A stretch of DNA of 64,000 bases, from contig CAWHAA010000005.1 of the NCBI GenBank assembly GCA_963827275.1, forward strand, positions 32,001 to 96,000. Reading direction: 5' to 3'. Every line of letters begins with the position of its first letter. Position 1 is the first letter of the stretch. The translations under genes were made by a program, and so were the position numbers. The stretch is from an uncultured Spirochaetota bacterium (GTDB lineage Bacteria > Spirochaetota > UBA4802 > UBA5550). Positions 3,095 to 24,515 of this stretch are shown piece after piece. The notes under the pieces are model-generated. The model saw only the letters and a program-made list of their open reading frames with translations. It made no database searches and was not told the origin of the DNA.

Positions 3095-4632
3095 TTACTT
3101 CGCGTACTCTATGATCCTGGTCTCCCGTATGACCGTCACCTTCACGATGCCCGGGTACTTGAGCTCGGACTCGATCTTGGTGGCGACTTCTTTCGCGATC
3201 CCTTCGGCCTTTTCGTCGCTGACGATGGAATTGTCCACGATGACGCGGAGCTCGCGGCCGGCCTGGATGGCGTAGCACTTTTCCACGCCCTTGAAGGCCA
3301 GGGCTATCTGCTCAAGGTTGTCGAGCCGCTTGAGATAGGTCTCGAGCGATTCCTTGCGCGCGCCCGGGCGCGAGGCGGAGATGGCGTCCGCGACCTGCAC
3401 CAGGACCGCCTCGAAGGACTCCGGCTCCCGGTCGTTGTGGTGCGAGGCGATCGCGTTCACGCACTTGTCGCCCTCGCCGAACTTCTTGGCCAGCTCCGAC
3501 CCCACGATGGCGTGGGCGCCCTCGCCCTCGACCACGCTCCCCTTGCCGATGTCGTGGAGGAGCCCGGCGCGCTTGGCCAGGTGCACGTCGAGCTTCAGCT
3601 CGCCCGCCATGATGCCCGCCATGTTGGCCACCTCGAGGCTGTGCGAGAGGACGTTCTGCCCGTAGCTCGACCGGTACTTCAGCTTGCCCAGGTTGTAGAG
3701 CGCCTCCTTGGCAAGGCCCGTGATCCCGAGCTGGTAGGCCGCCTTCTCGCCCTTCGTCGAGCATGTTCTCTTCTATTTCAGTGGTGACCTTCTCGACCAC
3801 CTCCTCGATCCGCGCCGGGTGGATACGGCCGTTCTGGATGAGCCGCTCGAGGGAGAGGCGGGCTATCTCGCGCCGCACCGGGTCGAAGCCCGAAATGACG
3901 ACCACCTCCGGGGTGTCGTCGATGATCATGTCCACGCCCGTGAGGTTTTCAAGGGTGCGGATGTTGCGGCCCTCGCGGCCGATGATCCGCCCCTTCATCT
4001 CGTCGGACGGCAGGGAGACCGTGGTGATGGTGCTCTCGGAGGTGTAGTCCGAGGCGTTGCGCTGGATCGCGGTGATGATGATCTCTTTCGCCTTCTTCTC
4101 CGCGGCCCGCTTCGCCTCCTCCTCGATCTTGTTGATGATCTTGGAAGCCTCGAACTTGGTCTCGTTCTCCAGGTTCTTCAACAATACCTGCTTCGCCTCG
4201 TCGGACGTCATGCCGGCGACGCGCTCGAGCTCCTTCTTGTGGCGCTCGAATTCCTTCCGGAGCTCCTCCTCTTTCTCGACGGTTCTCCTGCTCTTTGATC
4301 TTCAGCACCTTTTCCTGCTTGTCGATCTGGTCCAGGCGCTTGTCGATGGTCTCCTCTTTCTGCTGCAGCCGCTTCTCGACGTTCTGGAGCTCCTGCCGCC
4401 GGTCGCGGCCCTCTTTCTCCAGCGCGTTCTTTTCTTTCAGGAGCTGGTCCTTCGCTTCAAGGAGCAGCTCCTTCCGCTTGTTCTCCGCGTCCTTGACCGC
4501 GTCCTGGACGATCCGCTGGGACTTCGCCTCCGCGGAGCTGAGCTTTATCCTTCCAAGATATGCGCGGAAAGCATATCCCACTGTTCCTACGATCGGGAGA
4601 GCTATTATAAGAATGATTGTCAATAGCGTCAT
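3095..4632 (-). CDS. rny: Ribonuclease Y (two frameshifts)
   Basis: N-terminal TM helix, coiled coil, KH motif [15 protein letters not shown] motif [19 protein letters not shown]. Confidence 0.93.
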
Positions 4633-4790
4633 ATAAAACCTCCTGTCCCCCAAGTAATATCCGCCCCGGGCCGGGCCGCATGCGCGGGCCGTTCACGGGG
4701 AGCAATGCCCGTCCGCGTGTCGTTGCGACAGACGCGCACGGGGCACCCGTTGTGCCGCCGTAACGGCGGCATGCCGCCGCTGACCAGGGG

Positions 4791-5279
4791 TCAGCGCTGC
4801 ATGGAGGAGTATTTCTTCTGGATCTTTTGTATGACGAATTGCGGGACCAGGCTGGTGAGATCACCGTTATAGCTCGCGATTTCCTTGACCATTTTCGAAG
4901 AAATAAAAGCATATTCTCCTTTAGTCATCAGGAAAATCGTTTCAATCTCAGGTGCGAGTTTATTGTTCACGGAGGCGTTCGTCATTTCGTATTCGAAGTC
5001 TGTAATGTTCCGTACCCCGCGAATGATATAATCTATCCTCTGTGATTTGCAAAACTCAACCAGTAAACCCGAAAATGAAACAACATCTATTGAGCTGTCA
5101 TCCTTATACTTAAGATTTATGATCTCTAATCTCTCCTCGACTGTGAAGAGAGGTTGTTTCTCGCGATTGATCGCTATTGCCACTACCAGCTTATCACAAA
5201 GCCCCCTGGACCGCTCGATTATATCGAGATGTCCGTTTGTTAAAGGGTCAAAGGATCCTGGATAAATCCCAATCCGCAT
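4791..5279 (-). CDS. coaD: Phosphopantetheine adenylyltransferase
   Basis: MRIGIYPGSFDPLTNGHLDII...IIRGVR...ISSKMVKEIA. Confidence 0.95.
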   Translation of the reverse strand: MRIGIYPGSFDPLTNGHLDIIERSRGLCDKLVVAIAINREKQPLFTVEERLEIINLKYKDDSSIDVVSFSGLLVEFCKSQRIDYIIRGVRNITDFEYEMTNASVNNKLAPEIETIFLMTKGEYAFISSKMVKEIASYNGDLTSLVPQFVIQKIQKKYSSMQR

Positions 5280-5413
5280 ATATAATCCAATTACTCCAGT
5301 CACCGCTAATTTAACAGGTGTATCAATCCTGTCAAGAATTATATTACTATACTGATATTAACTATCGTATAGTAAAATCCGGCATAAACAATAAACCTGT
5401 CATTTTGGCCGGG

Positions 5414-5893
5414 TTACATCATGTCCCGTCTCATGAACGTGACCGCGCCGGCATACCGCTTTTTCCAGTAGGGATTTCTCATGTCAGTGCTGGTCACCCG
5501 CTTGCCGGAGCTCGGCGCGTGGATGAACCGGCGGCCCCCCATGTAGATGCCCACGTGCGACAGGCGGCGCTTCTTCGATGTCCTGAAAAACACCAGGTCA
5601 CCCGGCTTCGCCTGCCCGAGACGCACCGGCCTGCCCGCGTGATACTGGCCCTTCACCGAACGCGGCAGGAGGATGCCGTTTTTCTTGTATACGTACATGA
5701 CGTATCCCGAACAGTCGAACCCCCGCGGCGATTCCCCGCCGTAGCGGTACGGCACTCCCCTGTATTTCTCCGCGGTACGGACAATGCGGCTGCCCTGGTC
5801 CATGCGGGTGAACCAGCCTGTGCTGGCGCAGCCCGTCAGGTTCACAACCGCTATTGCCAATAGCAATGATGCTGAAAAAAGCCGTTTTTTCAT
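5414..5893 (-). CDS. NlpC/P60 (C40) peptidase lipoprotein
   Basis: Lipobox LTGC; PYRYGG...GFDCSG and SHVGIY...FIHAPS motifs. Confidence 0.9.
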   Translation of the reverse strand: MKKRLFSASLLLAIAVVNLTGCASTGWFTRMDQGSRIVRTAEKYRGVPYRYGGESPRGFDCSGYVMYVYKKNGILLPRSVKGQYHAGRPVRLGQAKPGDLVFFRTSKKRRLSHVGIYMGGRRFIHAPSSGKRVTSTDMRNPYWKKRYAGAVTFMRRDMM

Positions 5894-6084
5894 TATCCAA
5901 TACCGTTGGCCGGCCCTATCGCAGGGATGCCCTGAGACCGGGCGGGTCCAGTATATATATCGTACCAATATGTGGGGATATGAATCAATTAATGATGCCA
6001 CCGATCATGGGGAGGGTGTGCGCGGGAGCCGCTTTGCTATTCCCTCTATCGCCGGGCGGCGAGATGGGCCGGCCCGGGCCCTGG

Positions 6085-6118
6085 CATAGGGGGGCCGTTA
6101 CACGACGGCCCCCCTATG
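6085..6118. repeat. Perfect 14-bp inverted repeat (hairpin) at the left edge of the island
   Basis: CATAGGGGGGCCGT-tacacg-ACGGCCCCCCTATG. Confidence 0.8.
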
Positions 6119-6303
6119 AACCCCCCGCGTGGTCGCTCAAACGCCGCGACTGCCTCCGGGCGTAACTCGTGCGAATCCCGCTTCGCGGGAATTCGCCCTC
6201 ATACAGACGCCCGATTGGTTTGTCCGCCTTCGGCGGACGTTTTAATGGCTTTGTTCTGGAATGTAATACGTTATTGAGGAAGTTGTGGCCAGAAGACGCA
6301 TAC

Positions 6304-6463
6304 TGTCCGCTTCGATGGCGTTGACGCGCCGATCTCGCAACGCCGCACCTCGTGTGCGGCGAATGACAGCATAGCAATGACATAAGTTTTTGACCAGAAT
6401 AGCAATCCCGCATAATACACAGACGCCCGAATTGTCCGCTTCGATGGCGCTGACGCGCCGATC
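6304..6463. repeat. 31-bp direct repeat, two copies 129 bp apart
   Basis: TGTCCGCTTCGATGGCG(T/C)TGACGCGCCGATC at 6304 and 6433; partial related copy at ~6203-6230. Confidence 0.75.
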
Positions 6464-6539
6464 GAAGCGAGGCTTCTCCCGGACGATCCCCGCACCGCTT
6501 GTCATGATCTTTCCGGAAGGCCATACCTCAAGCGCGGCA

Positions 6540-7541: not shown

Positions 7542-8663
7542 TCACAACGGGCTCCGGATGCCCTTAAGCTGCGGATCATAGACCTTTGTATATATCGAAG
7601 TCGTGGTTATGTTCTTATGGCCGAGCAGCGCCTGTATGTGCCGAAGCGATATGCCGTTCTCGAGCAGGTGCGTGGCAAATGTATGCCGGAGGTCATGCGG
7701 CGACGCCTTTTTATTGATGCCGGCCTCCCTGAGCGCCCTCTCCAGCACCTTCTGCACTGTCCTTCCGGAAAGGGCATGGTGCCTTCCCTGCCTGTCCGTG
7801 CCGGACGAAAGGAATATGAACTCGTCACCACGCTTCCCATCCATAAACCGTCTCAGGTCATCGACAATCTTATCGGAAAAAATGGTGATGCGGTCTTTTT
7901 TCCCCTTCCCCTCCTTCACGTGAATCGACAGGCGCTCACAATCGACGTCCCGCACCCTCAGGCTGAGCAACTCGGAGAGCCTGAGCCCGGACGAGTAAAT
8001 AAGCGCGATCATTGTCCGGTGCTTCAGGTTTTTTATGCTGTCCAATATTCTCGCAATCTCGCCCCGGGTAAACACCACCGGAAGGTGCTTCGAATTCCGC
8101 ACTCCTTCAACAAACGAGAGGTCGATTGTCATGTTCAACATGTTATTAAAATAATACGCGAGCGCGAACCTGTACACTCGTACCGTCGATGCGGATGCTT
8201 CCCTGTCATTATTCAGATAAAGAAAAAACGCGCGGAAATCTGCATGATCCATATCGTCAATGTGTTTATTTTTTTTTGCCATGCTCCAGGCATGGATCAT
8301 TCGCACCGCGCTTAAATAAATTTTTATGGTTTTCCGCGAATATCGTTTCAACTTGAGCGTTTCTTCAAACTCTGTATACTGCCGCGGCAGTGACATCGGT
8401 TGCGCCACACTATTCCCGGACGCAGACACAACGGCCTTATCATTATCCTCATTTGGAAACCATGTTTCGATCTCTTTAAAAGCATTACGATATACACCGA
8501 GCGTTTTTTGAAAATAATCGCGCACCAGCAGAAAATCCCCGTAGCTAATTCTACTCCTGTTTCTTTCAAAAAACTCCATAATATTTTGGTTAGATATAAA
8601 CATTGCCTTTTTCCATGAATATTTCTCCAGCAACATCCCCAATATTCCATTTTCCATTCGCAT
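7542..8663 (-). CDS. Integron-like site-specific tyrosine recombinase lacking the canonical IntI insertion (start could lie up to 8744)
   Basis: N-terminal SAM-like domain (LKRYSRKTIKIY); full catalytic set in GLRLSE, GKGKKDR, HDLRHTFATHLLE, LLGH and IYT; divergent from the cassette array. Confidence 0.9.
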   Translation of the reverse strand: MRMENGILGMLLEKYSWKKAMFISNQNIMEFFERNRSRISYGDFLLVRDYFQKTLGVYRNAFKEIETWFPNEDNDKAVVSASGNSVAQPMSLPRQYTEFEETLKLKRYSRKTIKIYLSAVRMIHAWSMAKKNKHIDDMDHADFRAFFLYLNNDREASASTVRVYRFALAYYFNNMLNMTIDLSFVEGVRNSKHLPVVFTRGEIARILDSIKNLKHRTMIALIYSSGLRLSELLSLRVRDVDCERLSIHVKEGKGKKDRITIFSDKIVDDLRRFMDGKRGDEFIFLSSGTDRQGRHHALSGRTVQKVLERALREAGINKKASPHDLRHTFATHLLENGISLRHIQALLGHKNITTTSIYTKVYDPQLKGIRSPL

Positions 8664-8765
8664 CACCCCCCACATGTTTTCAACTACCATATCAGACCAT
8701 GATAATAAACGAATGGGAGGTTCGTTTAATAAAACATTATTCAATAAATTATGAATTTTTTCTTA

Positions 8766-8794
8766 TTGACTTTCGGCTCGCCTAACAGTAGCCT
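8766..8794 (+). promoter_or_regulatory. Candidate Pc-like promoter reading into the array
   Basis: TTGACT-17 bp-TAGCCT, about 30 bp upstream of the first cassette. Confidence 0.55.
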
Positions 8795-8833
8795 TAAAAA
8801 ATCATTAAGAAATTCGGACAATTTTAGTTAAAC
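8795..8833 (+). other. attI-like site, crossover G/TTAAAC at 8827/8828
   Basis: The repeated cassette sequence begins exactly at TTAAAC with no attC upstream; context AATTCGGACAATTTTAG/TTAAAC. Confidence 0.75.
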
Positions 8834-9300
8834 GCCATTTCGAGCGGCGGCCGCGGTTTTTTTGTTATAAATAAAAGAAAAAAATAGGGTTGGCTTTTCT
8901 TTCGATCATATAATAATTAAGGCAATAATCTTTTCGTTCGGTTGCAGCTTAACATTACGCGGCCGCCTCTGGGCTCGCAGGTCTCTCAGTATCGTTTTAT
9001 TGGGTCTTTCTGTTGATTCATAGATATGGGATAACCGACTGACGATATTGGTATGCAACTACTGTCGGTTGCAATACATCGCATAAAGCTTTAACTGGCA
9101 GGTCCTGCGATCCCAGTCGAAACGGCGCTTAACAAAGCATGGGGCGCTGCGCGCGGCCACGAAAATTTAGACGCTGTGGCCGCGCTTGGCCTCGCGCCTT
9201 TCCGCCAGCGGCGGTACTGATTGGCGGATGTTCTAACGCACCGCCACTGGCGGGGCGCTCGGCACACCGCCCTGCGGGCGGCGTCGCCCATGCTTGGACG
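8828..9300 (+). repeat. ORF-less structured cassette, copy 1 (variant A)
   Basis: Near-identical to the units at 9301, 10838, 11310, 15024 and 19074. Confidence 0.9.
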
Positions 9301-9306
9301 TTAAAC
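9127..9306 (+). repeat. attC-like site 1 (180 bp)
   Basis: GCTTAAC-A-AAGCATGGG...CCCATGCTT-GGAC-GTTAAAC. Confidence 0.85.
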
Positions 9307-9772
9307 GCCATTTCGAGCGGCGGCCGCGGTTTTTTTGTTATGAATAAAAGAAAAAAGAGGGTTGGCTTTTCTTTCGATCATATAATAATTAAGGCAATAG
9401 TCTTTTCGTTCGGTTGTAGCTTAACATTACGCGGCCGCCTCTGGGCTCGCAGGTCTCTCAGTATCGTTTTATTGGGTCTTTCTGTTGATTCATAGATATG
9501 GGATAACCGACTGACAATATTGGTGTGCAACTATTGTCGGTTGCACTACATCGCATAAAGCCTTAACAGACAGGTCCTGCGATCCCAGTCGAAACGGCGT
9601 TTAACAAAGCATGGGGCGCTGCGCGCGGCCACGAAAATTTAGACGCTGTGGCCGCGCTTGGCCTCGCGCCTTTCCGCCAGCGGCGGTGCTGATTGGCGGA
9701 TGTTCTAACGCACCGCCACTGGCGGGGCGCTCGGCACACCGCCCTTCGGGCGGCGTCGGCCATGCTTGGACG
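9301..9772 (+). repeat. ORF-less structured cassette, copy 2 (variant B)
   Basis: Direct repeat of 8828-9300 with diagnostic substitutions. Confidence 0.9.
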
Positions 9773-9778
9773 TTAAGC
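9599..9778 (+). repeat. attC-like site 2 (180 bp)
   Basis: GTTTAAC...GTTAAGC. Confidence 0.85.
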
Positions 9779-9891
9779 GCAATACAGCGCTGGCTTTGGG
9801 TTGGCTTTATGGTTGGTCCGGCCTCCTGCCGGCCTTTAATTATGAATTTCATTTTTAAAATATTCTTTTTCATTATTATAGGTTTTTATAT

Positions 9892-10605
9892 ATGAAAAGA
9901 TTAATTACTATTCTATCAATAACTTTCACTTTAATTTATTGTGAAAAATCTTATTCTAATTATTATCTGGGTCCTTATATATCTGTAGCTGTAGGTCAAA
10001 TGGCTCATACACAATCTTCAATTCGAGAAGTTTATGATAATTATATTTTTGGCGGAGGTGGAATCTTCCAAACATCGATTTATCGACGAGGTTTATATAA
10101 TTATAGATTAAATTTTTGTTTCGAAAAGATTTATATACCACATACGACCAAACTTGGAACTGATTTTAGAAATACAATTCGAGGAAATTTAATTAATACA
10201 ATTGCTTATTCAATTTATAAAAAAAGGAATTATAATTTATGGATCGGGCCGCAAATCGGTCTTCATATTTTATGGGGCGACAATTATCTAAGTGATAATA
10301 AATATAATAAATTGAATACGATCCTCATTTCATCAATAATAATGAATCCTGAACTACCACTAATCATTTTACTATATTCTTCGAATAATTATGTGAAATT
10401 TACTGATTTTATTTTTAGTTTTGCTCCGGAAATTGGCATTGATATAAATGCAACAGACTTTTTAATTATATCATTGGAAAGTGGATTGAGAGTAGGTATT
10501 CATTTGCCAACAAATAAAATATCTAGCTCTGTTACATTGTATAGATTTGAAGGATTTTTTAATCTTTCATTTTTATTTAGAATTAACAAAGAAGAAAATA
10601 CATAA
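9892..10605 (+). CDS. Cassette-encoded hypothetical exported protein, possibly an outer-membrane beta-barrel
   Basis: Signal-peptide-like N-terminus; alternating aromatic/hydrophobic strands; single ORF in cassette 9773-10837. Confidence 0.65.
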   Translation: MKRLITILSITFTLIYCEKSYSNYYLGPYISVAVGQMAHTQSSIREVYDNYIFGGGGIFQTSIYRRGLYNYRLNFCFEKIYIPHTTKLGTDFRNTIRGNLINTIAYSIYKKRNYNLWIGPQIGLHILWGDNYLSDNKYNKLNTILISSIIMNPELPLIILLYSSNNYVKFTDFIFSFAPEIGIDINATDFLIISLESGLRVGIHLPTNKISSSVTLYRFEGFFNLSFLFRINKEENT

Positions 10606-10663
10606 TTTTATTATGCCGCCGCCGTCCTGACGGCGGCAACTTGAACTGGGAGCGCTGTACTGC

Positions 10664-10843
10664 GCTTAACAAAGCATGGGACGCTGCGCGCGGCCACGAA
10701 AATTTAGACGCTGTGGCCGCGCTTGGCCTCGCGCCTTTCCGCCAGCGGCGGTGCCGATTGGCGGATGTTCTAACGCACCGCCACTGGCGGGGCGCTCGGC
10801 ACACCGCCCTTCGGGCGGCGTCGCCCATGCTTGAACGTTAAAC
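10664..10843 (+). repeat. attC-like site 3 (180 bp)
   Basis: GCTTAAC...GTTAAAC. Confidence 0.85.
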
Positions 10844-11309
10844 GCCATTTCGAGCGGCGGCCGCGGTTTTTTTGTTATAAATAAAAGAAAAAAGAGGGTT
10901 GGCTTTTCTTTCGATCATATAATAATTAAGGCAATAGTCTTTTCGTTCGGTTGCAGCTTAACATTACGCGGCCGCCTCTGGGCTCGCAGGTCTCTCAGTA
11001 TCGTTTTATTGGGTCTTTCTGTTGATTCATAGATATGGGATAACCGACTGACGATATTGGTATGCAACTACTGTCGGTTGCAATACATCGCATAAAGCTT
11101 TAACTGGCAGGTCCTGCGATCCCAGTCGAAACGGCGCTTAACAAAGCATGGGGCGCTGCGCGCGGCCACGAAAATTTAGACGCTGTGGCCGCGCTTGGCC
11201 TCGCGCCTTTCCGCCAGCGGCGGTACTGATTGGCGGATGTTCTAACGCACCGCCACTGGCGGGGCGCTCGGCACACCGCCCTTCGGGCGGCGTCGCCCAT
11301 GCTTGGACG
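10838..11309 (+). repeat. ORF-less structured cassette, copy 3 (variant A); its attC-like site spans 11136-11315
   Basis: Direct repeat of 8828-9300. Confidence 0.9.
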
Positions 11310-11781
11310 TTAAACGCCATTTCGAGCGGCGGCCGCGGTTTTTTTGTTATGAATAAAAGAAAAAAGAGGGTTGGCTTTTCTTTCGATCATATAATAATTA
11401 AGGCAATAGTCTTTTCGTTCGGTTGTAGCTTAACATTACGCGGCCGCCTCTGGGCTCGCAGGTCTCTCAGTATCGTTTTATTAAGTCTTTCTGTTGATTC
11501 ATAGATATGGGATAACCGACTGACAATATTGGTGTGCAACTATTGTCGGTTGCACTACATCGCATAAAGCCTTAACAGACAGGTCCTGCGATCCCAGTCG
11601 AAACGGCGTTTAACAAAGCATGGGGCGCTGCGCGCGGCCACGAATATTTAGACGCTGTGGCCGCGCTTGGCCTCGCGCCTTTCCGCCAGTGGCGGTACTG
11701 ATTGGCGGATGTTCTAACGCACCGCCACTGGCGGGGCGCTCGGCACACCGCCCTTCGGGCGGCGTCGCCCATGCTTGGACG
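11310..11781 (+). repeat. ORF-less structured cassette, copy 4 (variant B); its attC-like site spans 11608-11787
   Basis: Direct repeat of 9301-9772. Confidence 0.9.
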
Positions 11782-12491
11782 TTAAGCGCAATACAGCGGC
11801 TTTATTTTTTTGCTTTATTCTGGGGCCGGCCTCCTGCCGGACTATTCTTAAAGAAAATGCTTTTTTATTAATGTCCTGGAAGTCTATATCCACCTTTTCC
11901 ACTCAATTCTTGTAAGAGTGTAGAGATATTTTTTTATTATTAAAGAAATACTAAATAAAATATTCTGAAAAATAGCTCAATCTGTTCTCTTTTAGCTAAG
12001 ACGCAAGAGTAGTCTTTTTGATTTATTTTTTTATGTTTTTCTTGACCAGTATTCTCATGTGCATATATATAATTCTGTATTAAAATACTTTTTAAATATT
12101 AATACAAAAGAAAATGTTTGGACATTTGTTCGCCGTGAATTTATTGTACTGAAACGTAAGAGCATACTTTTTTAATTTATTATTTTCTTGGCTTATTCTT
12201 AACCGTAATAGTTATCTATTTTTTACATACTTCAGTATAAATATTATTTTTTTGCTGTAAGTGTATTTGCCGCCGCCGTCCTGACGGCGGCAACTTGAAC
12301 TGATAGCGCTGTACTGCGCTTAACAAAGCATGGGGCGCTGCGCGCGGCCACGAAAATTTAGACGCTGTGGCCGCGCTTGGCCTCGCGCCTTTCCGCCAGT
12401 GGCGGTGCCGATTGGCGGATGTTCTATCGCACCGCCGCTGGCGGGGCGCTCGGCACACCGCCCTTCGGGCGGCGTCGCCCATGCTTGGACG
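11782..12491 (+). other. Second type of ORF-less cassette (AT-rich core); its attC-like site spans 12318-12497
   Basis: No credible ORF; ends are shared with cassette 9773-10837. Confidence 0.8.
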
Positions 12492-12524
12492 TTAGGCGCA
12501 ATTTGGTTGATATTTAATAATATT

Positions 12525-13034
12525 ATGACAAATTTATTATCCTTAAAAGAAATAGAAAGCGAAGTAAATAATCTTGCAAGATTGATAAATGCACCAAAAG
12601 ATTATTTGCCAACATTTGGCTATACAAATGATTTTGCACAACCTCATATTGAGATAAATTATAATCAGTATCACTATGTAATTGTCGAGCGTGGCCAAGA
12701 ATTTGAAAGAAAATCAACGGAAAATATTCATGAACTTTTATATTGGATATTTGAATCAATAACATTTAATATGGCTATTGATTATGAATTTAAAAATAGA
12801 ATTGAAGATCTTGATTCTAGACGTATTGCTTTTAAAAAACAAGAAGAATTATTAAATCTACTTAATCCAGATTGGAAGAATACATTAGAAAATAAACATA
12901 AATTAATATTAGAAAAACATCCTTTTGATGACTTATCTGGTTTAAGGGCAACATATTGTAGGGAGTTGAGAGAAAAAGGATATTGTGAAGATGATATAAC
13001 TAAAAAGGCTTATGAAAAATATCCTTTGCCTTGA
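12525..13034 (+). CDS. Imm63-like immunity protein (cassette)
   Basis: PHIE...YHYVIVERGQEFERKST...ELLYWIF...DSRRIAF pattern, recognised from memory. Confidence 0.7.
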   Translation: MTNLLSLKEIESEVNNLARLINAPKDYLPTFGYTNDFAQPHIEINYNQYHYVIVERGQEFERKSTENIHELLYWIFESITFNMAIDYEFKNRIEDLDSRRIAFKKQEELLNLLNPDWKNTLENKHKLILEKHPFDDLSGLRATYCRELREKGYCEDDITKKAYEKYPLP

Positions 13035-13046
13035 CAACCAAACTGC

Positions 13047-13220
13047 GCATAACAAAGCATAGCCGCTCCGCTCCTCGCTCGCTAAGGCTCGCTGCGGTGC
13101 TCGGCCTCGCGCTTATCCCGCCAGCTGCGGCGGTGATTTGGGGAGGGTTTTGAGCCGCCTTGCTGGCGGGGCGCTCGGCAACCTGGCTTCGCCAGGTTCG
13201 GCTATGCTGAGACGTTAGGC
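13047..13220 (+). repeat. attC-like site (174 bp)
   Basis: GCATAAC-AA-AGCATAGCCG...CGGCTATGCT-GAGAC-GTTAGGC. Confidence 0.85.
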
Positions 13221-13298
13221 GCCATTTCTGGCTGGCTTTTTTATTTCCTCGCCATCCATGGCTCGGAATTATTATCATATTTTATCAGGAGGACATTT

Positions 13299-13883
13299 AT
13301 GGGTCTAATTGTTCATTCATTAGAAAACATACCTCAATCTTCAAATAGGGATTATATAATATATTTACTCGATTATGGCTGGAGTGAACCAATTGGAAAA
13401 GCTCTTAATGATAATTTTGATCATATGGCTAATATTGCAGCAAATAATCGAGCTGTAATTATTAAGGGAACTAGATTAGGTGATTTTGCAAACGAAGTTT
13501 TTTCTTGGCATCATATAAATAATATTGATGCCGATGACATTCTTCCTGCATTATTAATTACCAATAAACATCCCGTATATTTTAAAGATTATGAGTTTGG
13601 ATATCGCCAAAAAAAGGGATTATATAGAGACACCAAAGATGATGATTTAAAATTAATTCTAATACCTTTTAAAAAGTTTTGTAAAACAACAACTGAGGTA
13701 ATTTCTTTAATCGAAAAAGTATTTTCTGATATAATTAACAAAAAGGATTTATCAAATTTTTCTGTAGCAAAAGAAATGAAAAAAGGAATATGTTCTGCAA
13801 TTGTAGACGCTATAATACTTGAGCCTAATTTTTCCGGAATTGGTTTTAGTTTTAATAAATTCAGGAGTTATTTAAAAACTTAA
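13299..13883 (+). CDS. Cassette-encoded hypothetical protein
   Basis: 194-aa ORF with a strong RBS (AGGAGG); family not recognised. Confidence 0.8.
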   Translation: MGLIVHSLENIPQSSNRDYIIYLLDYGWSEPIGKALNDNFDHMANIAANNRAVIIKGTRLGDFANEVFSWHHINNIDADDILPALLITNKHPVYFKDYEFGYRQKKGLYRDTKDDDLKLILIPFKKFCKTTTEVISLIEKVFSDIINKKDLSNFSVAKEMKKGICSAIVDAIILEPNFSGIGFSFNKFRSYLKT

Positions 13884-13958
13884 AATTAACTTATTTGTAA
13901 TTACTCAAAAGTACATCCATGTACTTTTGAACTTTTTCGTTTTAATGCCAGAAACGGC

Positions 13959-14206
13959 GCCTAACAAAGCATAACCGCTCCGCTCCTCGCCCACTTCGCG
14001 GGCTGCGGTGCTCGGCCTCGCGCCTGGCCGCCTCCGTCGGTGCCGATTTGGGGATGATCTAAAGCACCGACTCCGGCGGCGCGCTCGGCTCATTTTTCGG
14101 CGCTTCTTAGTTTCAAATAAATTAGTACTTGCAAAATTGCTTACAACAGGATAGATAACTTTTCGCGGCCAGGCCTCAAAACGACGGTTATGCTTGGACG
14201 TTAAGC
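13959..14206 (+). repeat. attC-like site (248 bp)
   Basis: GCCTAAC-A-AAGCATAACCG...CGGTTATGCTT-GGAC-GTTAAGC. Confidence 0.8.
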
Positions 14207-14241
14207 GACATTGCCATTTTTTTATGTATTTGGAGTTATGA

Positions 14242-14863
14242 ATGATTCCATCAGAAAGACACCCAATTGTTTCATTCTTCCTTGATGCTTATTTCATTGA
14301 AACATTTTTAAATCTTATAAAAAAATTATATCTGCCGAACGAGTATTTTAATATATCTATAAGAATAATATTTAATGATAATATTCATATTTTACCATGC
14401 TTACTATTATAAAAAAACAAAATTCCGCACTATTGGCGAACTTATTACTGGAACCTATATAGATAGTGATGGTAATAAATATTTTCTTAATCCATTTTAT
14501 TTAAATCGTTTTATTTTATGGGTTCCAATGTTTCTCACCTTTGTTGGTTTAAAATCTGTAAATATAATTCAAATAAATGACTTAAAATTAATTTCATCAT
14601 TAATATTTATTGGCATTTTATTATTAACATATTTTTCATACATCATGTTAAATAGAGGATATGTTATCGGTTTAATTTTATTATTAATAATTTATGCTTC
14701 TTTAATTTTTAATGTAATATACAATAAAGGATTTATTATAAAATTATTTGATTGGGAATTAATAATAGAATTCACATTATTATTGTTATTTATAACAATA
14801 ATAATAGCATATTGGATTATAAGAATGAATAAATTTCAAAATATAAATGGCAACGTCGCTTAA
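14242..14863 (+). CDS. Cassette membrane protein, RDD-like N-terminus; apparent frameshift near 14373
   Basis: MIPSERHPIVSFFLDAYF from 14242 after RBS GGAG, continuing in another frame as YYYKKTKFRTIGELITG plus four TM segments; stop codon lies within the attC R'' box. Confidence 0.6.
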
Positions 14864-15029
14864 CACGGCGTTCACGCTCCGCTCCTCGGGGCTTCGCCCC
14901 TGCGGTGCTCGGCTTCGCGCCTCGCCCGCCGGTTTCGGCGGTTTTCGGAGGAGTGTTCTGAGCCGTTTCACCGGCGGGGGCGCTCAGCAACCTGGCTTCG
15001 CCAGGTTCGTAAACGCCGGAACGTTAAAC
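14858..15029 (+). repeat. attC-like site (172 bp)
   Basis: GCTTAAC-A-CGGCGTTCACG...CGTAAACGCCG-GAAC-GTTAAAC. Confidence 0.85.
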
Positions 15030-15495
15030 GCCATTTCGAGCGGCGGCCGCGGTTTTTTTGTTATAAATAAAAGAAAAAAGAGGGTTGGCTTTTCTTTCGA
15101 TCATATAATAATTAAGGCAATAGTCTTTTCGTTCGGTTGCAGCTTAACATTACGCGGCCGCCTCTGGGCTCGCAGGTCTCTCAGTATCGTTTTTTTGGGT
15201 CTTTCTGTTGATTCATAGATATGGGATAACCGACTGACGATATTGGTATGCAACTACTGTCGGTTGCAATACATCGCATAAAGCTTTAACTGGCAGGTCC
15301 TGCGATCCCAGTCGAAACGGCGCTTAACAAAGCATGGGGCGCTGCGCGCGGCCACGAAAATTTAGACGCTGTGGCCGCGCTTGGCCTCGCGCCTTTCCGC
15401 CAGCGGCGGTACTGATTGGCGGATGTTCTAACGCACCGCCACTGGCGGGGCGCTCGGCACACCGCCCTGCGGGCGGCGTCGCCCATGCTTGGACG
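15024..15495 (+). repeat. ORF-less structured cassette, copy 5 (variant A); its attC-like site spans 15322-15501
   Basis: Direct repeat of 8828-9300. Confidence 0.9.
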
Positions 15496-15547
15496 TTAGG
15501 CGAAAAAACGCCAAAATATAAGTCGAGGTAAAAAGGAAATTTATATT

Positions 15548-17989
15548 ATGGAAATTTATGCTATACTATTAAAATTATTTGATTTTCTTAATAAAATGTC
15601 TAATATTTCCTTTACAACATTTATCGCATTCATAGGAGCTATTACTGGTTCATTAACTTTTTATTATACTTTTTTAAAAAGATTTAATCCAAAATGTATA
15701 ATTAGTGGTGATATTATTTTTCATTGCAACAAAGGTTCTTTAAAAAATAATGATGCCTATTTAAAAGAAATAGAGTTAAATATTACATTCAGCAATGAAT
15801 CTAATAAGTATGGGTTGATTGAAGACCTACTAGTTCGTATATATTCAACGGATGGGATCACAAGAGAAACTGATCCTACCCCACAATTCGACCAGTTTCA
15901 AGTTTAGTTTTCTCGATCACTAACATATCATTATATTGTTTTGGCGTCATCCCTTTTAATCTCTTTTGAGGTCTTTCCTCGTTATATTCTCTCCACCATT
16001 CATGAATAATCTCTCTGGCTGTACTCAGTTTTTTAAAATAATGAGCACTGAGACATTCATTCCGAAATGTTCCATTAAAACTTTCTATGTGGCAATTATC
16101 TGATGGCTTGCCGGGCCTTGTGAAAATTATTTTAATCCCCTTTTCATAGCACCAACGGTCGAGTTCCTGGCTTCTAAATTCAGGACCATTGTCACATTGT
16201 ATAAATTCTGGATACCCAAAGGATTCACATGCTCTTTCAAGTAGTTCAGAAACATCCTTACCCGTTATTGAAAATCCAGTATGAATAAGTGGCGAATGAT
16301 TCGTTACAGGGTCAATCGCTGTCAGTATTTTGAGATTCTTTTTAAAGCCCACCGAGTCATGAATGAAATCTAAAGCCCATATGACGCCAGGTTCATTCGG
16401 CAATTCAACGGGTGATCGTTCTAATGAAGCTATCTTTTTCCGACGTTTCCGCGCTCGTAATTGCAGCCCATGCTCTTTATATATCCTTTCTGTACGCTTA
16501 TGATTAATCAGTATCCCTTTTTGCCTCAGCTTGAGCTGTATCATTCCGCAGCCATATTTTGAATTTTTTGAAAGGATCGAATCTATCTCTCCAATGATTC
16601 GTGCGTCATCATTTGGCTGCGGACTATATAAAAATGTAGAACGAGCCATGCAAGAAACCTTGCATGATCGTCGTATCGAAAACCCGAAGCTACTCATCAG
16701 ATAGCTTACTGCCTCTCTCTTCACTCCGGGTCGCAGAACTTTTTTATGATCTCCTTCTGTGCCATGTTATCCAGGGATAAATCGGCAACCAGTTTCTTTA
16801 ATCGTGTATTTTCATCTTCAAGTAGTCGCAATCGAACAATTTCCTGAGAGCTCATATCTCCATATTTGCGCTTCCAGATATAAAAGGAGTTCTCACTAAT
16901 GCCGTGTTCTCGGGCGATATCCTTTACCTTTTTTCCCGCCTTATGCTCACCAAGGATCCTGACAATCTGCTCTTCTGAGAATCGTTTTTTCATTTTAACC
17001 TCATTAGTCTTGATTATTTATCGGTTAAAACTAAACTATCTCGTGGTACAAATTTAAGGGGTGGGATCAAAACCACTCCTTATTTTATAAGTCTTTTCAA
17101 GGATCATGATAATCCTGATAAATTGCCATTTTACCCTATCGTATTAATCCCTAAAAGTTTTCGTTCATCTACATTTATCTTTATCGATCGAATTGCCGCA
17201 TCAGAAAAAATAATAAATATTGATCGTGATTATAATCTTCAATTATTCATTAAATATAAAAAAGAAAATAATTGGGTTTTAATTGATGATATAACTCTAT
17301 ATTGTAAATTAAAAGATAATACCAATCAATTATTTGATTTAATATTTATGTCTATAAATCAACAGATTATTCGCGATAAGGCTAAAGACTATATTGGGAA
17401 AATTCCAAAACCTTTTTACAGAGGAATAATACATCAATGGTTTAAAATTATATTTGAGGAAGTTAAGTTTTTCATTATAAGGACAATTTATAAATTGTTG
17501 CATTTCATACAATGTATTTACCATCTTATTCTCTCTGGAATTAATTGGCTTGTATCTTTTATTGTAATAAATAACCTATTAATATTTTTATCTTCAAAGA
17601 CTAAGGAAATTAAAACAAGTAGCCAAATTGGTCCCGATGAGCAAACACTGGATTATATAAAAAAACTACACAAAGTAATTTTAAAATTAGTTACTAAAAT
17701 TAATAATAGATCAGAAAGCAAAATTGATATTCAATACAAAGGCAAAGATATTTTATTAAGTCGCAATAATTTTGAAATTATTATTTATGCACCTGGCGTT
17801 AACCATATAATGGCACATGATAAAGAAAGTCATGAATATAAGCTTTTTCTTGAATTTGCGATGGTTGTAAATAGGATTAATCATAAATATTGGACATATG
17901 ATGATAAATTTATATCGATTACGAGAATAGCATTAAAAATTATTGATAGTTTTAGCTTAATGACTCAATATAAAATAATTCCTGAATAA
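15548..17989 (+). pseudogene. Cassette hypothetical membrane protein interrupted by IS3
   Basis: Removing 15871-17073 rejoins ...TDGITRET-TPYFISLFKDHDNPDKLPFYP... in frame. Confidence 0.8.
15871..17069 (-). mobile_element. IS3-family element, copy 1 (1199 bp; orfA 16721-16993, orfB 15876-16724)
   Basis: IRs TGATCCTACCCC/GGGGTGGGATCA; AAAC target duplication; orfA MKKRFSEEQI; orfB DDE motifs WALDF, DNGPEF, IESFNG; A6G slippery site at the orfA end. Confidence 0.95.
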
Positions 17990-18002
17990 TTGACGTTTCT
18001 TC

Positions 18003-18125
18003 GCCTAACAAAGCATAACCGCTGCGCGCGGCCACAAGAAATGAAGCTGTGGCCGTGCTCGGCCTGCGGCACACCGCGCCAAGGGAGGAAGCTGGCGCGG
18101 CGTCGGTTATGCTTGGACGTTAAGC
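18003..18125 (+). repeat. attC-like site (123 bp)
   Basis: GCCTAAC-A-AAGCATAACCG...CGGTTATGCTT-GGAC-GTTAAGC. Confidence 0.85.
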
Positions 18126-18189
18126 GCCATGGAAAAAGAGCTTTTTGCCCGCCATCCGTGGCGGGCTTTTTAAGAAATATATTTTTTTC

Positions 18190-18218
18190 TTGACATGTAG
18201 TCATTATATGACTACTTT
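18190..18218 (+). promoter_or_regulatory. TA cassette promoter with palindromic operator
   Basis: TTGACA-17 bp-TACTTT overlapped by GTAGTCAT-tat-ATGACTAC. Confidence 0.75.
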
Positions 18219-18223
18219 GATTT

Positions 18224-18487
18224 ATGTTCTCAGTTAAAATATCAAAAAAGGCTATTAAGGGCATTCATAAAATGCCCATTAAAATTCAAGAAAGAATGAA
18301 TGTCCTTCTTAAAGATCTACGTGCAAAAGGACCCATGCGATATGAATGGCCAAATTTTAGTAAATTAGATGAAAATCTGTATCATTGTCATTTAGCTCAC
18401 AAATGGATCGCATGCTGGAAATATGAAAAACATACAATCATTATAGAGGTTTATTATGCAGGCTCACGTGAAAACGCCCCATATTAA
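18224..18487 (+). CDS. RelE-like toxin (toxin-first TA cassette 1)
   Basis: 87-aa basic protein ending IIIEVYYAGSRENAPY, upstream of an XRE-HTH gene. Confidence 0.7.
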   Translation: MFSVKISKKAIKGIHKMPIKIQERMNVLLKDLRAKGPMRYEWPNFSKLDENLYHCHLAHKWIACWKYEKHTIIIEVYYAGSRENAPY

Positions 18488-18824
18488 AATTAATATTAAA
18501 GGTGAAATTCATCCCAAAGTTCTTTCTGTTTTAAAAGAAGTCTATGGGAAAAAAGTTAAACTTATCAAGGAAAATGATGAAGAATTAGTTGATGCCTTTG
18601 AAACTGAATGGTTTAAAAATATTGATGCCACCATGTCTCCCGGCAAAAACATGAGGATATATCGAGAAATTCATAAAATGACCCAAGAAGAACTAGGTAA
18701 CAAATTAGGTGGCATTTCTAAACAAAATATTTCTCATATGGAACGAGGTATTAGACCTATTAGTAAAAAAACTGCTAAATCATTGGCTTCAATTTTTAAA
18801 GTTCCGGCAGACCGTTTTATTTGA
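18456..18824 (+). CDS. XRE-family HTH antitoxin (HigA-like)
   Basis: MTQEELGNKLGGISKQNISHMERGIRPIS. Confidence 0.8.
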   Translation: MQAHVKTPHIKINIKGEIHPKVLSVLKEVYGKKVKLIKENDEELVDAFETEWFKNIDATMSPGKNMRIYREIHKMTQEELGNKLGGISKQNISHMERGIRPISKKTAKSLASIFKVPADRFI

Positions 18825-18900
18825 CTATTTTTAAGATATTGCCCTGCCCTCGCCCGTCCTGGACTCGGGCAGTAAATACTTATACTATTTTTTCCACGGC

Positions 18901-19079
18901 GCTTAACACGGCGTTCACGCTCCGCTCCTCGGCGGCTTATTGGCGCCTGCGGTGCTCGGCTTCGCGCCTTGCCCGCCGGTTTCGGCGGTTTTCAGAGGAG
19001 TGTTTTGAGCCGCCTCACCGGCGGGCGCGCTCAGCAACCTGGCCTGCGGCCAGGTTCGTAAACGCCGGAGACGTTAAAC
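18901..19079 (+). repeat. attC-like site (179 bp)
   Basis: GCTTAAC-A-CGGCGTTCACG...CGTAAACGCCG-GAGAC-GTTAAAC. Confidence 0.85.
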
Positions 19080-20482
19080 GCCATTTCGAGCGGCGGCCGC
19101 GGTTTTTTTGTTATGAATAAAAGAAAATAAATAAGGTTGGCTTTTCTTTCGATCATATAATAATTAAGGTGTAATAGACTCGATTTAATCTGACACTCTT
19201 CCGATAAATGGAGCAGAAAATGCTCTGAATAATTATACGGAGGAGTACATGACAACAGAACAGAAAGTCATCAGGAACAAAATGGGGTTATTAAACCTCG
19301 CAGAGCAGATTGGGAATGTCAAAAAAGCATGTCACATTATGGGATATTCCCGAGACAGTTACTACCGGCTAAAGGAACTTTATGATACTGGTGGTGAAGA
19401 AGCGTTAAAAGAAATCAGCAGAAAAAAAGCTAATATAAAGAATCGTGTTGATCCAAGTGTTGAAACTGCAGTTAACAGCATTGCAATTGAGTATCCCGCA
19501 TTTGGACAGGTTCGGGCTTCTAATGAACTGAGAAAACAGGGGATATTTGTCTCACCTACCGGAGTAAGAAGCATATGGCTCCGTAATGATCTTGAAACCA
19601 TGAAGAAGCGGCTCAAGGCACTTGAGGCCAAGGTCGCTCAAGATGGAATCATTCTCACGGAATCACAGCTTGCCGCATTAGAGAAAGCCAAAGAGGAAAA
19701 GGAAGCTCATGGTGAGATTGTATCTGAACATCCTGGTTATCTGGGTTCGCAGGACACAATGTATGTAGGAACGGTCAAAGGTGTTGGCCGGATATACCAG
19801 CAGACTTTTATAGACACGTATTGTAAGGTGGCTTTTGCAAAGTTATACAATATGAAAACACCAATTACCTCTGCCGACATATTGAACGACAGGGTTATAC
19901 CGTTTTATGAAAACAGCAGCATTAAGCTGATCCGAGTATTGACGGATCGTGGTACCGAATATTGCGGGAAAATGGAAAGTCATGACTATGAACTGTTTCT
20001 TTCGATTGAGGATATTGAGCACACAAAGACAAAGACGCGGCATCCTCAAACAAATGGAATATGCGAAAGATTTCATCGAACCATTCAAGATGAATTTTAT
20101 CGCATAGCATTTAGAAAGAAAATTTACAACACTCTTGATGAACTTCAGAAGGATCTTGACATATGGATTGTTCAATATAATAATGAGAGACCGCATAGTG
20201 GAAAATATTGTTATGGCAAAACACCGATAGATACGTTCAAGGATTCGTTAGTGCTTGCAAAAGAAAAACTGCTAAACTTTAACTGACAGGCAGTTTGGAA
20301 GTGATTGGTGAGTGTCAGATGAAGTTCAGAGTTTTACAATTAAGGCAATAATCTTTTCGTTCGGTTGCAGCTTAACATTACGCGGCCGCCTCTGGGCTCG
20401 CAGGTCTCTCAGTATCGTTTTATTGGGTCTTTCTGTTGATTCATAGATATGGGATAACCGACTGACGATATTGGTATGCAAC
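19074..20482 (+). repeat. ORF-less structured cassette, copy 6, interrupted by IS481 and truncated by IS3
   Basis: Repeat sequence is present at 19074-19169 and 20339-20482. Confidence 0.85.
19170..20338 (+). mobile_element. IS481-family element (transposase 19249-20286)
   Basis: TGT...ACA ends with imperfect IRs sharing ATCTGACACT; ATTAAGG duplicated on both sides; TDRGTEY and TNGICERFHRT motifs. Confidence 0.93.
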
Positions 20483-21681
20483 TGATCCTACCCCACAATT
20501 CGACCAGTTTCAAGTTTAGTTTTCTCGATCACTAACATATCATTATATTGTTTTGGCGTCATCCCTTTTAATCTCTTTTGAGGTCTTTCCTCGTTATATT
20601 CTCTCCACCATTCATGAATAATCTCTCTGGCTGTACTCAGTTTTTTAAAATAATGAGCACTGAGACATTCATTCCGAAATGTTCCATTAAAACTTTCTAT
20701 GTGGCAATTATCTGATGGCTTGCCGGGCCTTGTGAAAATTATTTTAATCCCCTTTTCATAGCACCAACGGTCGAGTTCCTGGCTTCTAAATTCAGGACCA
20801 TTGTCACATTGTATAAATTCTGGATACCCAAAGGATTCACATGCTCTTTCAAGTAGTTCAGAAACATCCTTACCCGTTATTGAAAATCCAGTATGAATAA
20901 GTGGCGAATGATTCGTTACAGGGTCAATCGCTGTCAGTATTTTGAGATTCTTTTTAAAGCCCACCGAGTCATGAATGAAATCTAAAGCCCATATGACGCC
21001 AGGTTCATTCGGCAATTCAACGGGTGATCGTTCTAATGAAGCTATCTTTTTCCGACGTTTCCGCGCTCGTAATTGCAGCCCATGCTCTTTATATATCCTT
21101 TCTGTACGCTTATGATTAATCAGTATCCCTTTTTGCCTCAGCTTGAGCTGTATCATTCCGCAGCCATATTTTGAATTTTTTGAAAGGATCGAATCTATCT
21201 CTCCAATGATTCGTGCGTCATCATTTGGCTGCGGACTATATAAAAATGTAGAACGAGCCATGCAAGAAACCTTGCATGATCGTCGTATCGAAAACCCGAA
21301 GCTACTCATCAGATAGCTTACTGCCTCTCTCTTCACTCCGGGTCGCAGAACTTTTTTATGATCTCCTTCTGTGCCATGTTATCCAGGGATAAATCGGCAA
21401 CCAGTTTCTTTAATCGTGTATTTTCATCTTCAAGTAGTCGCAATCGAACAATTTCCTGAGAGCTCATATCTCCATATTTGCGCTTCCAGATATAAAAGGA
21501 GTTCTCACTAATGCCGTGTTCTCGGGCGATATCCTTTACCTTTTTTCCCGCCTTATGCTCACCAAGGATCCTGACAATCTGCTCTTCTGAGAATCGTTTT
21601 TTCATTTTAACCTCATTAGTCTTGATTATTTATCGGTTAAAACTAAACTATCTCGTGGTACAAATTTAAGGGGTGGGATCA
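20483..21681 (-). mobile_element. IS3-family element, copy 2 (encodes proteins identical to copy 1)
   Basis: Same IRs and identical orfA/orfB translations; flanks come from two different cassettes. Confidence 0.95.
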
Positions 21682-21689
21682 AAACCCAT

Positions 21690-22142
21690 ATGAAAATACT
21701 TATAAAACTCCTGCCATTTATATTAGGTGGTGCCTTAGTTATTCAATCTTCACTAAATAAATCAATTGCCCAATCAAAAGGCTTAAGCACAGCATTAGTC
21801 ATAAATGGATTAATTGTTGTATTCTGTTCATTAATAATATTTATTTTATCATATTTTTTCCCACATCACTTCTCGGAAATTATTACTTATAACAACAATA
21901 ATTTGATATTTAAATGGTGGTATATAATTCCTGGTTTTTTAGGATTTTGTGCATTATTAATTCTTCCAATTGGAATTATGAAAATTGGTGCCTTACCAAT
22001 TTTTCTTGGAGTAATTGCTGGGCAAATAATCGTAAGTATTATATATGATTTTTATTTTGAAAATATTTCAATTAATTTAATTCGTGTATCAGGAGCCTTA
22101 TTAACTTTTATTGGAGCCTTTTTGGTAGTTTGGAAAAGATGA
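21690..22142 (+). CDS. DMT-superfamily (YdcZ/DUF606-like) small transporter (cassette)
   Basis: Five TM segments; QSSLN, WWYIIPGFLG, GQIIVSIIYD, RVSGALL. Confidence 0.75.
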   Translation: MKILIKLLPFILGGALVIQSSLNKSIAQSKGLSTALVINGLIVVFCSLIIFILSYFFPHHFSEIITYNNNNLIFKWWYIIPGFLGFCALLILPIGIMKIGALPIFLGVIAGQIIVSIIYDFYFENISINLIRVSGALLTFIGAFLVVWKR

Positions 22143-22317
22143 ATAATTATTCAAATCACAAGTAATAACCAACAAATAACTAATAACTTGACAAAATATG
22201 TATTTATTATTATAGAATATATAAATTACATGCAAAATATTATTTTTTTTTACCTTAATGTTGCTTTTCGCCATCCATGGCTCAAAGCAAATATGCCTTA
22301 ATGTGTATGGCCACTTC

Positions 22318-22455
22318 ACCTAACAAAGCATAGCCGCTGCGCGCGGGAATACCGCGCTTGGCCTCCGCGCCAAGATATGAAGACGGCGCTACGGCACATT
22401 TTCACCTCCGCGAGTACGCTCCGGTGAAAACGTCGGCTATGCTTGGACGTTATAC
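22318..22455 (+). repeat. attC-like site (138 bp)
   Basis: ACCTAAC-A-AAGCATAGCCG...CGGCTATGCTT-GGAC-GTTATAC. Confidence 0.85.
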
Positions 22456-22515
22456 GCCATGGCAAACTTTTCGCCTGCCATCCATGGCGGGCGTGGTATT
22501 TCATAATAAAATATG

Positions 22516-22544
22516 TTGACAAGTAACCCTTATTTGGTTACATT
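22516..22544 (+). promoter_or_regulatory. TA cassette promoter with palindromic operator
   Basis: TTGACA-17 bp-TACATT overlapped by GTAACC-cttattt-GGTTAC. Confidence 0.75.
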
Positions 22545-22549
22545 GCATT

Positions 22550-23147: not shown

Positions 23148-23222
23148 TTTTTTATTACCTTTGGCCCGCCTCCGCACGTCCTGTGCTTCGGCGGTAGAGC
23201 TTTTTTACTTCATTGCCACGGC

Positions 23223-23528: not shown

Positions 23529-23599
23529 GCAATTGCCCCATTTTATATAGAATAGAAAAATATAGTATAAATATTACAAAAAAATTGTGCATATAAATT

Positions 23600-24474: not shown

Positions 24475-24515
24475 GAAACCCGGCGGTTTTGAAATTTGAG
24501 AGGAACTCTTTCATA

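Follow-up and report, generated by a model that had tools for sequence, protein, structure and literature searches.

A shared leader-trailer frame around unrelated cargoes in integron gene cassettes of an uncultured Spirochaetota bacterium

We analysed a stretch of DNA of 64,000 nucleotides (the window; G000:C5:32001-96000) from the 4.13-Mb assembly G000 of an uncultured Spirochaetota bacterium, with the focus on two neighbouring integron cassettes, here named X (9773-10837) and X' (11782-12491). The array of AT-rich cassettes to which they belong runs from 8828 to ~25500 and adjoins the divergently oriented integrase gene intI (Table 1), close relatives of which were found in 14 of the 16 other genomes of the genus. 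By our own heuristic, 13 attC sites with inverse core and core sites, paired inner boxes and a single orientation were located in 8400-26500, and a motif scan gave three further attC sites in the array. Judged by these sequence features, X and X' are integron gene cassettes. Both are preceded by cassettes without an open reading frame (ORF), A and B, which a first-pass annotation of the window had taken for a pair; A and B are indeed present before each of the two cassettes, but they are alleles, 95% identical, of a single cassette body of 306 nt and not two kinds. A single clean duplication leading from A-B-X to A-B-X' was considered and is not supported: the attC copies differ at 0-6 of 167 positions, and the attC of X has 5 differences from that of X' and 4-6 from those of A or B, hence it is no closer to X'. 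The A/B cassette heads the array and occurs in six copies between 8828 and 20482 of the window, the sixth being interrupted by two insertion sequences (19249-20286 and 20488-21605).

Table 1. Features of the cassette array and of related loci; positions are those of the window, except where a contig of G000 is named.
Feature	Position	Strand	Remarks
intI, integron-type tyrosine recombinase gene	7542..8744	-	Pfam Phage_integrase E 3e-43, Phage_int_SAM_4 (Pfam families only scanned)
ORF-less cassettes A1 and B1	8828..9772	+	306-nt body and 169-nt attC
X, 5' arm of terminal inverted repeat, core site first	9772..9791	+	19/20 complementary to 10651-10670
X, 5' hairpin	9818..9832	-	bottom-strand loop CAGGAG
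X, AT-rich remainder of conserved leader	9833..9880	+	80% to orthologous cassette L053, 51% to X'
X, cargo, 237-aa ORF	9892..10605	+	predicted PorT-like outer-membrane beta-barrel
X, 3' hairpin	10614..10638	-	bottom-strand loop CAGGAC; foot TGCC at 10614-10617
X, linker and 3' arm of terminal inverted repeat, inverse core site last	10639..10670	+	
X, attC body	10671..10837	+	type as in A/B and X'
ORF-less cassettes A2 and B2	10838..11781	+	
X', leader with 5' repeat arm	11781..11840	+	5' hairpin at 11826-11840
X', cargo, non-coding	11841..12267	.	25% GC
X', trailer	12268..12324	+	3' hairpin 12268-12292, linker, 3' repeat arm
X', attC body	12325..12491	+	
Intergenic GGA-loop repeat family	C10:106050-106300, C4:449219, C8:353542, C10:284845		
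Second intergenic GGA-loop repeat family	C10:167051, C5:705435		

The two cassettes share their ends and differ in what lies between them. The leaders of X and X' are 79.7% identical over 64 nt and the trailers 96.5% over 57 nt, and each of these sequences occurs in exactly two copies in the assembly, while both interiors are single-copy. The coordinates, the shared ends, the 237-aa ORF of X and the ORF-less interior of ~430 bp in X' described in the first-pass annotation were all recovered. Its claim that the cargoes are unrelated, and not decayed copies of each other, was borne out too, as the interiors gave no match to each other by blastn (E<=0.05) or tblastx (E<=1e-4). The 237-aa protein had no Pfam match; its Atlas feature score to PorT/OMP clusters was 0.97, with a recognition value under the threshold of the tool, so that the prediction is a lead only, and the nearest Atlas clusters were mostly spirochaetal. 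The X' cargo contains a diverged tandem duplication of ~150 nt (11947-12093 and 12101-12251; score 74, compared with a mean of 29.7 and a maximum of 49 in 500 shuffles), a single-unit relative of which is present in L051. A hidden ORF in X' was rejected, the longest start-to-stop ORF being of 38 aa, or of 26 aa once an extra base was added; this base, at window position 12117, was present in six of six DNA runs, and at this point the assembly may have lost one base or represent a rare allele. Like A and B, X' has no ORF and only weak sigma-70-like matches (9 of 12 consensus positions), one of them antisense (12261-12234). An Rfam scan gave four matches, each of them far under the gathering score.

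Pieces of X were found in three DNA runs and a fourth run contributed one contig of cassette length linking both ends; pieces of X' came from six runs of six studies, in several alleles, one of these runs being possibly the source sample. No listed contig covers the whole of A-B-X-A-B-X', so the order is taken from this assembly alone. Loose ends in the runs at 11842, 12079 and 12234 were examined as possible copies of the X' cargo outside the frame and were rejected, as they matched over just ~20-35 AT-rich bases. In one metatranscriptome, A/B and the X gene were each covered by a contig; these two contigs were unstranded, possibly DNA, and were not counted.

The structure common to both cassettes, which we call the frame, has two ends of different character. 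On the top strand its 5' end comprises the core site, an arm of 18-20 nt, a T-rich linker, the 5' hairpin and an AT-rich stretch, followed by the cargo. At the 3' end conservation sets in sharply at TGCC with the 3' hairpin, which is followed by a linker that varies and by the arm complementary to that of the leader. In the family of cassettes described below, leader conservation reaches ~50-70 nt beyond the 5' hairpin, up to a promoter-like motif (TTGTCA-16/17-NACACT) that was present in 8 of 13 family leaders and in none of 50 other cassettes; X, X' and three more members are without the motif, which in the X leader (9833-9880) is curtailed or absent. Since the leader extends past the 5' hairpin, it is the 3' boundary alone that coincides with a hairpin. 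The earlier proposal of cargo exchange between two hairpins is supported at the 3' hairpin by the mosaic structure of X, but not at the 5' one.

The arms of the terminal repeat had at least 15 matched bases in 51 of 60 cassettes, compared with 6% of mismatched leader-trailer pairs. For this count 7 of the 67 cassettes parsed were left out, since a missed attC or an insertion sequence had disrupted their ends, and 7 of the 60 had been picked by pattern; the dropped cassette 22449 was restored with corrected ends in the later counts (stop-codon/attC, family and hairpin-pair analyses). Among the 54 cassettes that were not picked by pattern, both hairpins were found in 11, a single one or the other in 2 and 1, and none in 40. 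The loop motif of the hairpins, CA(N)GGA(N)G as read on the bottom strand, showed a marked strand preference in the end zones of cassettes, with 35 occurrences on the bottom strand vs 2 on the top strand, as against 2 vs 2 in the interiors, and tandem G-A internal loops were confined to the bottom strand (7 vs 0). Hairpin energies calculated with RNA parameters were in favour of the bottom strand by 24 to 5. When folded, the circle junction of either cassette, X or X', gives a single long stem with a hairpin on each side, the bottom strand being somewhat more stable. Stop codons of framed genes lie at a median of 19 nt before the hairpin foot, similar to the 28 nt before the cassette end in unframed genes, which suggests that the hairpin foot acts as the working 3' end of the cargo. 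Among the parsed cassettes, position 11 of the terminal repeat showed a recurrent top-strand A/C mismatch, equivalent to a T-G wobble of the bottom strand.

Besides the pair in this genome, cassettes with this frame were found in a relative and in metagenomes; their absence would have counted against the first-pass reading. Metagenomes were searched with a pattern made from the leader only, the trailer being left out of it. The pattern gave 17 metagenome loci (12 true cassettes following attI or attC and 5 chance matches) as well as 2 further places in genome G001, and array parsing added one extra member, L050:219. All 11 distinct cassettes readable at both ends (L050:219 included) have the matching 3' hairpin and trailer; in one of them the trailer is broken by an end resembling that of an insertion sequence directly after the 3' hairpin. 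Nine cargo classes are carried in the frame. The X gene accounts for three cassettes; the other classes are the non-coding DNA of X', another interior that lacks an ORF and six ORF cargoes (81, 90, 93, 112, 172 and 268 aa). The cargoes are 295-823 nt long, the best nucleotide match between classes is 33 AT-rich bases, interiors are alike only within the X and X' classes, and trailers are up to 98% alike around unrelated genes. A trailer-hairpin pattern run against 185,579 species genomes gave 5 matches, 2 of them with the leader upstream and the other 3 in GC-rich open frames of unrelated bacteria; it gave no match in viral contigs, and no plasmid matched the combination of trailer and attC. 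In L007 a second frame was found, which holds two different cargoes. Two family-level matches in G027 were rejected as frame, as they sit inside another ORF-less cassette. The frame is real, and is a layer in the structure of integron cassettes that seems not to have been described before; in the literature covered, which leaves older work on cassette structure largely aside, we found no shared leader-trailer frame and no CsrA-type hairpins at attC.

The framed cassettes are mobile: relatives of X and X' follow other attC types in L053 and L051 and a non-attC site in L042. In L020 (1440-2424; G001:C10) a framed X orthologue is integrated on its own at a site other than attC, with a doubled inverse core and a decayed core site behind its attC. 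Two homologous cassettes resembling toxin-antitoxin modules (a small ORF and an HTH_3 gene; window 18119-18907 and 22449-23229) were also seen to have paired GGA hairpins and terminal repeats of their own.

To see which parts of X belong together, we scored its informative sites as being of the type of the orthologue in L053 or of the type of X'. The ratio of orthologue to X' type was 25:5 in the leader and 23:6 just before the foot of the 3' hairpin, and 2:12 from the hairpin foot on (Fisher p 1.3e-4). The identity of X to the L042 orthologue likewise ends at TGCC. The 5' hairpin region of X goes with its cargo (25 of the 30 informative leader sites have the type of its own orthologue). At position 5 of the 3' hairpin X has the base of X' and not that of the orthologue. 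The repeat arm of X is of the X' subtype at both ends and both orthologues differ from it, which fits an exchanged block that is uninterrupted in the circle. On this comparison of sequences X is a mosaic: where the 3' hairpin begins, its trailer changes to the type of X', and the TGCC foot of this hairpin is the probable point of exchange in X. The placing within four bases depends on one variable site, and the 5' side on one site, so that this is to be read as a hint only.

The attC body is a third independent part, following the host array and not the frame, as it is 96-97% identical among X, X' and A, and 54% between X and its orthologues. X and X' do share an attC type, as first annotated, but this is not special to the pair, since A and B have the same type. 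A swap of attC bodies would result from top-strand recombination at the inverse core site, and the doubled inverse core in L042 fits a swap of this kind.

The cargoes have relatives outside the frame. The X protein comes from a large family encoded on the chromosomes of the host lineage; members of it, mostly 23-34% paralogues, were found in 30 of the 122 genomes of the order. A 41% relative in L021 has an ordinary chromosomal context, with no frame and no attC motif. For the 112-aa cargo we found frameless relatives of 58% (L068) and 42% (L069) in operon-like contexts, and one of 39% (L070) within a cassette of a different frame. This indicates that cargo genes occur without the frame and that framing has taken place more than once. 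The 268-aa cargo of L050 had no relative in the 122 genomes. The search for sources of the two cargoes, suggested in the first-pass annotation, gave for X the frameless 41% relative in L021; for X' the genome offered just two weak AT-rich matches (E 0.01), one of which was inspected and judged to be chance. The pair itself does not capture loading in this genome: X orthologues (65-70% protein identity) are already in the frame in L053 and L042, so that X was not loaded here, and X' orthologues are likewise framed elsewhere.

How could one frame have come to hold nine unrelated cargoes? The attC in an array precedes the leader of the next cassette, so an attC copied from the array would break the match of leader and trailer; matched ends around nine cargoes thus point to replacement of the interior in a whole cassette or in its circle. 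We consider it likely that new cassettes are made by interior replacement of existing framed cassettes, when structure-guided exchange and ordinary recombination are taken together. That the replacement proceeds by structure-guided exchange at the foot of the 3' hairpin is a plausible proposal, to which we would give somewhat less than an even chance. According to this proposal, the frame would be donated by an entire cassette or by the circle that it forms, and an attC copied out of the array would not serve. In the excised circle the 3' hairpin, the repeat arm, attC, the other repeat arm and the 5' hairpin would form a contiguous single-strand module on the strand used by IntI, and the interior of a framed cassette would be replaced via exchange at the foot of the 3' hairpin. 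The near-identical trailers of X and X' may come from a later exchange between co-resident cassettes, and attC bodies may be exchanged separately, at the inverse core site. In a more specific version the frame would be the substrate of a cassette-making machine: a protein, with IntI and CsrA among the candidates, would read the two GGA-loop hairpins on the single-stranded bottom strand of the excised circle, cut the foot of the 3' hairpin and join the extended attC module, promoter included, to new host DNA. We regard this version as rather unlikely; if true, old cassettes would be natural cloning vectors for new ones.

Several observations weigh against structure-guided exchange. The 5' boundary of the frame is gradual and lies away from the hairpin. 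With DNA parameters the bottom strand of the hairpins is favoured merely 19 vs 13, and covariation of the 3' hairpin in the family is weak (1 of 10 pairs, reached by 56 of 500 shuffles). The one site on which the four-base placing of the X breakpoint depends is variable in other members of the family too, and since the cassettes are related, p values are overstated. In the two toxin-antitoxin cassettes the frames are ~68% alike and frame and cargo have diverged together. The similarity of leaders did not follow that of trailers, either in framed cassettes outside the family (Mantel r 0.03, p 0.42) or, significantly, within it (r 0.28, p 0.10). As for enzyme candidates, the six Y1 transposases of the genome have another flanking motif and its two reverse transcriptases lie outside the array. 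In the sequencing runs no contig carried a hybrid X/X' cassette or an empty frame, and cargo joined to other DNA was not seen in run contigs beyond short AT-rich matches. A near-identical cargo donor was not found, the closest frameless relative being the one of 58%.

Among the alternatives, the best placed, possible though on balance doubtful, is that frames are inherited and interiors are swapped by ordinary homologous or microhomology recombination, so that the sharp 3' edge would be the onset of selection on the hairpin. The gradual 5' boundary agrees with it, as does the fact that no enzyme was identified; 22 of 25 bases common to the hairpin variants would provide homology, and the five X leader sites that side with X' are what short conversion tracts would yield. 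A crossover in or after the hairpin should, however, keep the orthologue base at hairpin position 5, where X has the X' base, and the homology in the frame is insufficient to join a wholly unrelated gene at both ends.

The frame could also be a selected expression chassis, in which the 5' hairpin is a weak terminator, the motif is a promoter and CsrA binds the loops on antisense RNA. There is agreement between the loops and the CsrA consensus RUACARGGAUGU given in PMC2896534, and csrA is present in the genome, so that a role at the RNA level is possible. The distribution of the promoter-like motif (8 of 13 family leaders, none of 50 others), the flagging of the 5' hairpins of X and X' as terminator-like and the bottom-strand preference under RNA parameters would all suit such a role. 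On the other hand, the GGA motif is opposite to most cargo mRNA strands and distant from ribosome binding sites, X and X' retain the hairpins without the promoter motif, and terminator-like sites are not above shuffles (4 vs 6.7). This explanation, which we find improbable, says little on the making of cassettes, and nine unrelated cargoes in one frame would still need a loading route.

Still less probable, in our opinion, is a small mobile hairpin-attC-hairpin element that inserts on both sides of a chromosomal gene, after which IntI excises the framed cassette. It would account for the matched ends and the frameless relatives of cargoes, for similar loop hairpins in a few repeated intergenic elements of the genome and for the one framed X orthologue outside an array without a preceding attC. 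A free trailer-attC-leader unit was, nevertheless, found neither in G000 nor among the trailer matches in the 185,579 genomes, no leader follows the solitary framed cassette, attC bodies do not travel with the frame, and the loop is barely enriched in hairpins genome-wide (98 of 6848 for GGA loops vs 30-59 of 3117-6478 for four control loops). Descent of all interiors from one ancestral cargo, diverged or decayed past recognition (X' being a dead gene), is very improbable and already largely refuted by two separate chromosomal families: X' and the L007 cassette are AT-rich and ORF-less, and some Vibrio gene-less cassettes are decayed genes according to bioRxiv 2023.11.21.568050, but there is no nucleotide or translated similarity among classes of 295-823 nt, at least two cargo proteins come from separate families with chromosomal members, and trailers up to 98% alike stand beside unrelated genes.

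The origin of integron cassettes is called "largely unknown" in PMC5371416 and is listed as an outstanding question in PMC8618304. The matched frame ends around nine cargoes constrain cassette genesis, in that the donor would be a whole cassette or circle and not a lone attC placed behind a gene, and the frame gives a defined substrate and a four-base window for testing cassette making. The apparent exchange of attC bodies after the birth of a cassette suggests that attC sequence would be weakened as a clue to its birthplace. What we contribute is one frame family with nine cargoes, the frameless cargo relatives, a promoter-like leader motif, an attC body that is independent of the frame, and the X breakpoint; the question of cassette origin is thereby made testable.

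In the usual integron cassette the ends are complementary over the 7 bp of the core site, in contrast to 18-20 bp in the cassettes described here. Sedentary chromosomal integrons otherwise resemble this array (Vibrio VCR arrays; Spirochaetes attC models in PMC8352920) in having intI beside an AT-rich cassette array, a palindromic attC per cassette with core and inverse core, bottom-strand folding and host-specific attC types. They differ in that here about a quarter of the cassettes bear two added hairpins, and that a leader of ~135 nt and a trailer of 56 nt are common to unrelated cargoes and independent of the attC body. X', A and B are comparable to the gene-less promoter cassettes of Vibrio and Treponema (bioRxiv 10.1101/2023.11.21.568050; PMC8876359), being likewise ORF-less with weak sigma-70-like matches; the accessible sections of these papers describe no frame common with coding cassettes. 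CsrA/RsmA hairpins such as the CsrB repeats (consensus in PMC2896534) resemble those of the frame in that CA(N)GGA(N)G caps a short stem, and csrA is present in the host, whereas here two isolated hairpins lie at fixed distances from a recombination site and opposite most cargo genes. TD-1 and TD-2 of Treponema denticola are repeated spirochaete hairpin motifs of unknown function (PMC1950547; Rfam RF03162), the description of which, as far as accessible, does not mention integrons. TD-2 had no match at E<=5 in the array and, with only 150 candidates scored per genome, none at E<=1 in any of five genomes.

IS200/IS605 and REP/RAYT elements are hairpin-ended single-strand elements with a Y1 transposase mechanism. 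Like the frame, they have two similar hairpins, oriented alike and placed close to the ends of a mobile unit that is single-stranded when it moves, whereas the cassettes described here are moved by IntI at attC. None of the six Y1 transposase loci, inspected over 900 nt per side, had a frame, one of them having two loose loop matches, and no frame copies outside cassettes were found in G000 or among the trailer matches in the 185,579 species genomes. Leon and Roy reportedly proposed a group IIC-attC intron model of cassette formation, in which a gene is joined to attC. It addresses the same question, but alone would not yield a leader matched to its trailer, and no group IIC intron with a reverse transcriptase was found inside an attC of the array (Pfam scan and reverse transcriptase check). 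Such introns are described in PMC8876359.

Some minor observations concern the loops. In some long attC bodies (window 23280-23320; L020 1240-1400) two to three CAGGATG-loop hairpins follow each other on the top strand; the 63 attC bodies parsed for folding contained none of this type. Tandem GGA-loop hairpins were seen outside the integron in two small intergenic repeat families of G000 (Table 1). On contig C7 the loop recurs within a 291-bp repeat present five times, which was rejected as a frame-like element, being a coding repeat. Y1 transposase genes with a flanking ACTCTGAC(C/A)CC motif lie in G000 at C4:515137, C1:83512, C5:601300, C9:82135 and C10:43359, and two Y1 copies are 99% identical over 894 bases. 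Concerning attC sites and other cassettes, the last attC of the array (window 25432-25575) is degenerate and terminates in a GCCATCCATGGC hairpin, with no core site seen, and a lone attC outside the array (G000 C4:745369-746844) is interrupted by an insertion sequence. A family of ORF-less cassettes of 237-245 nt is widespread, with at least nine copies across the arrays of G016 (L002, L003), L045, L051 and L061.

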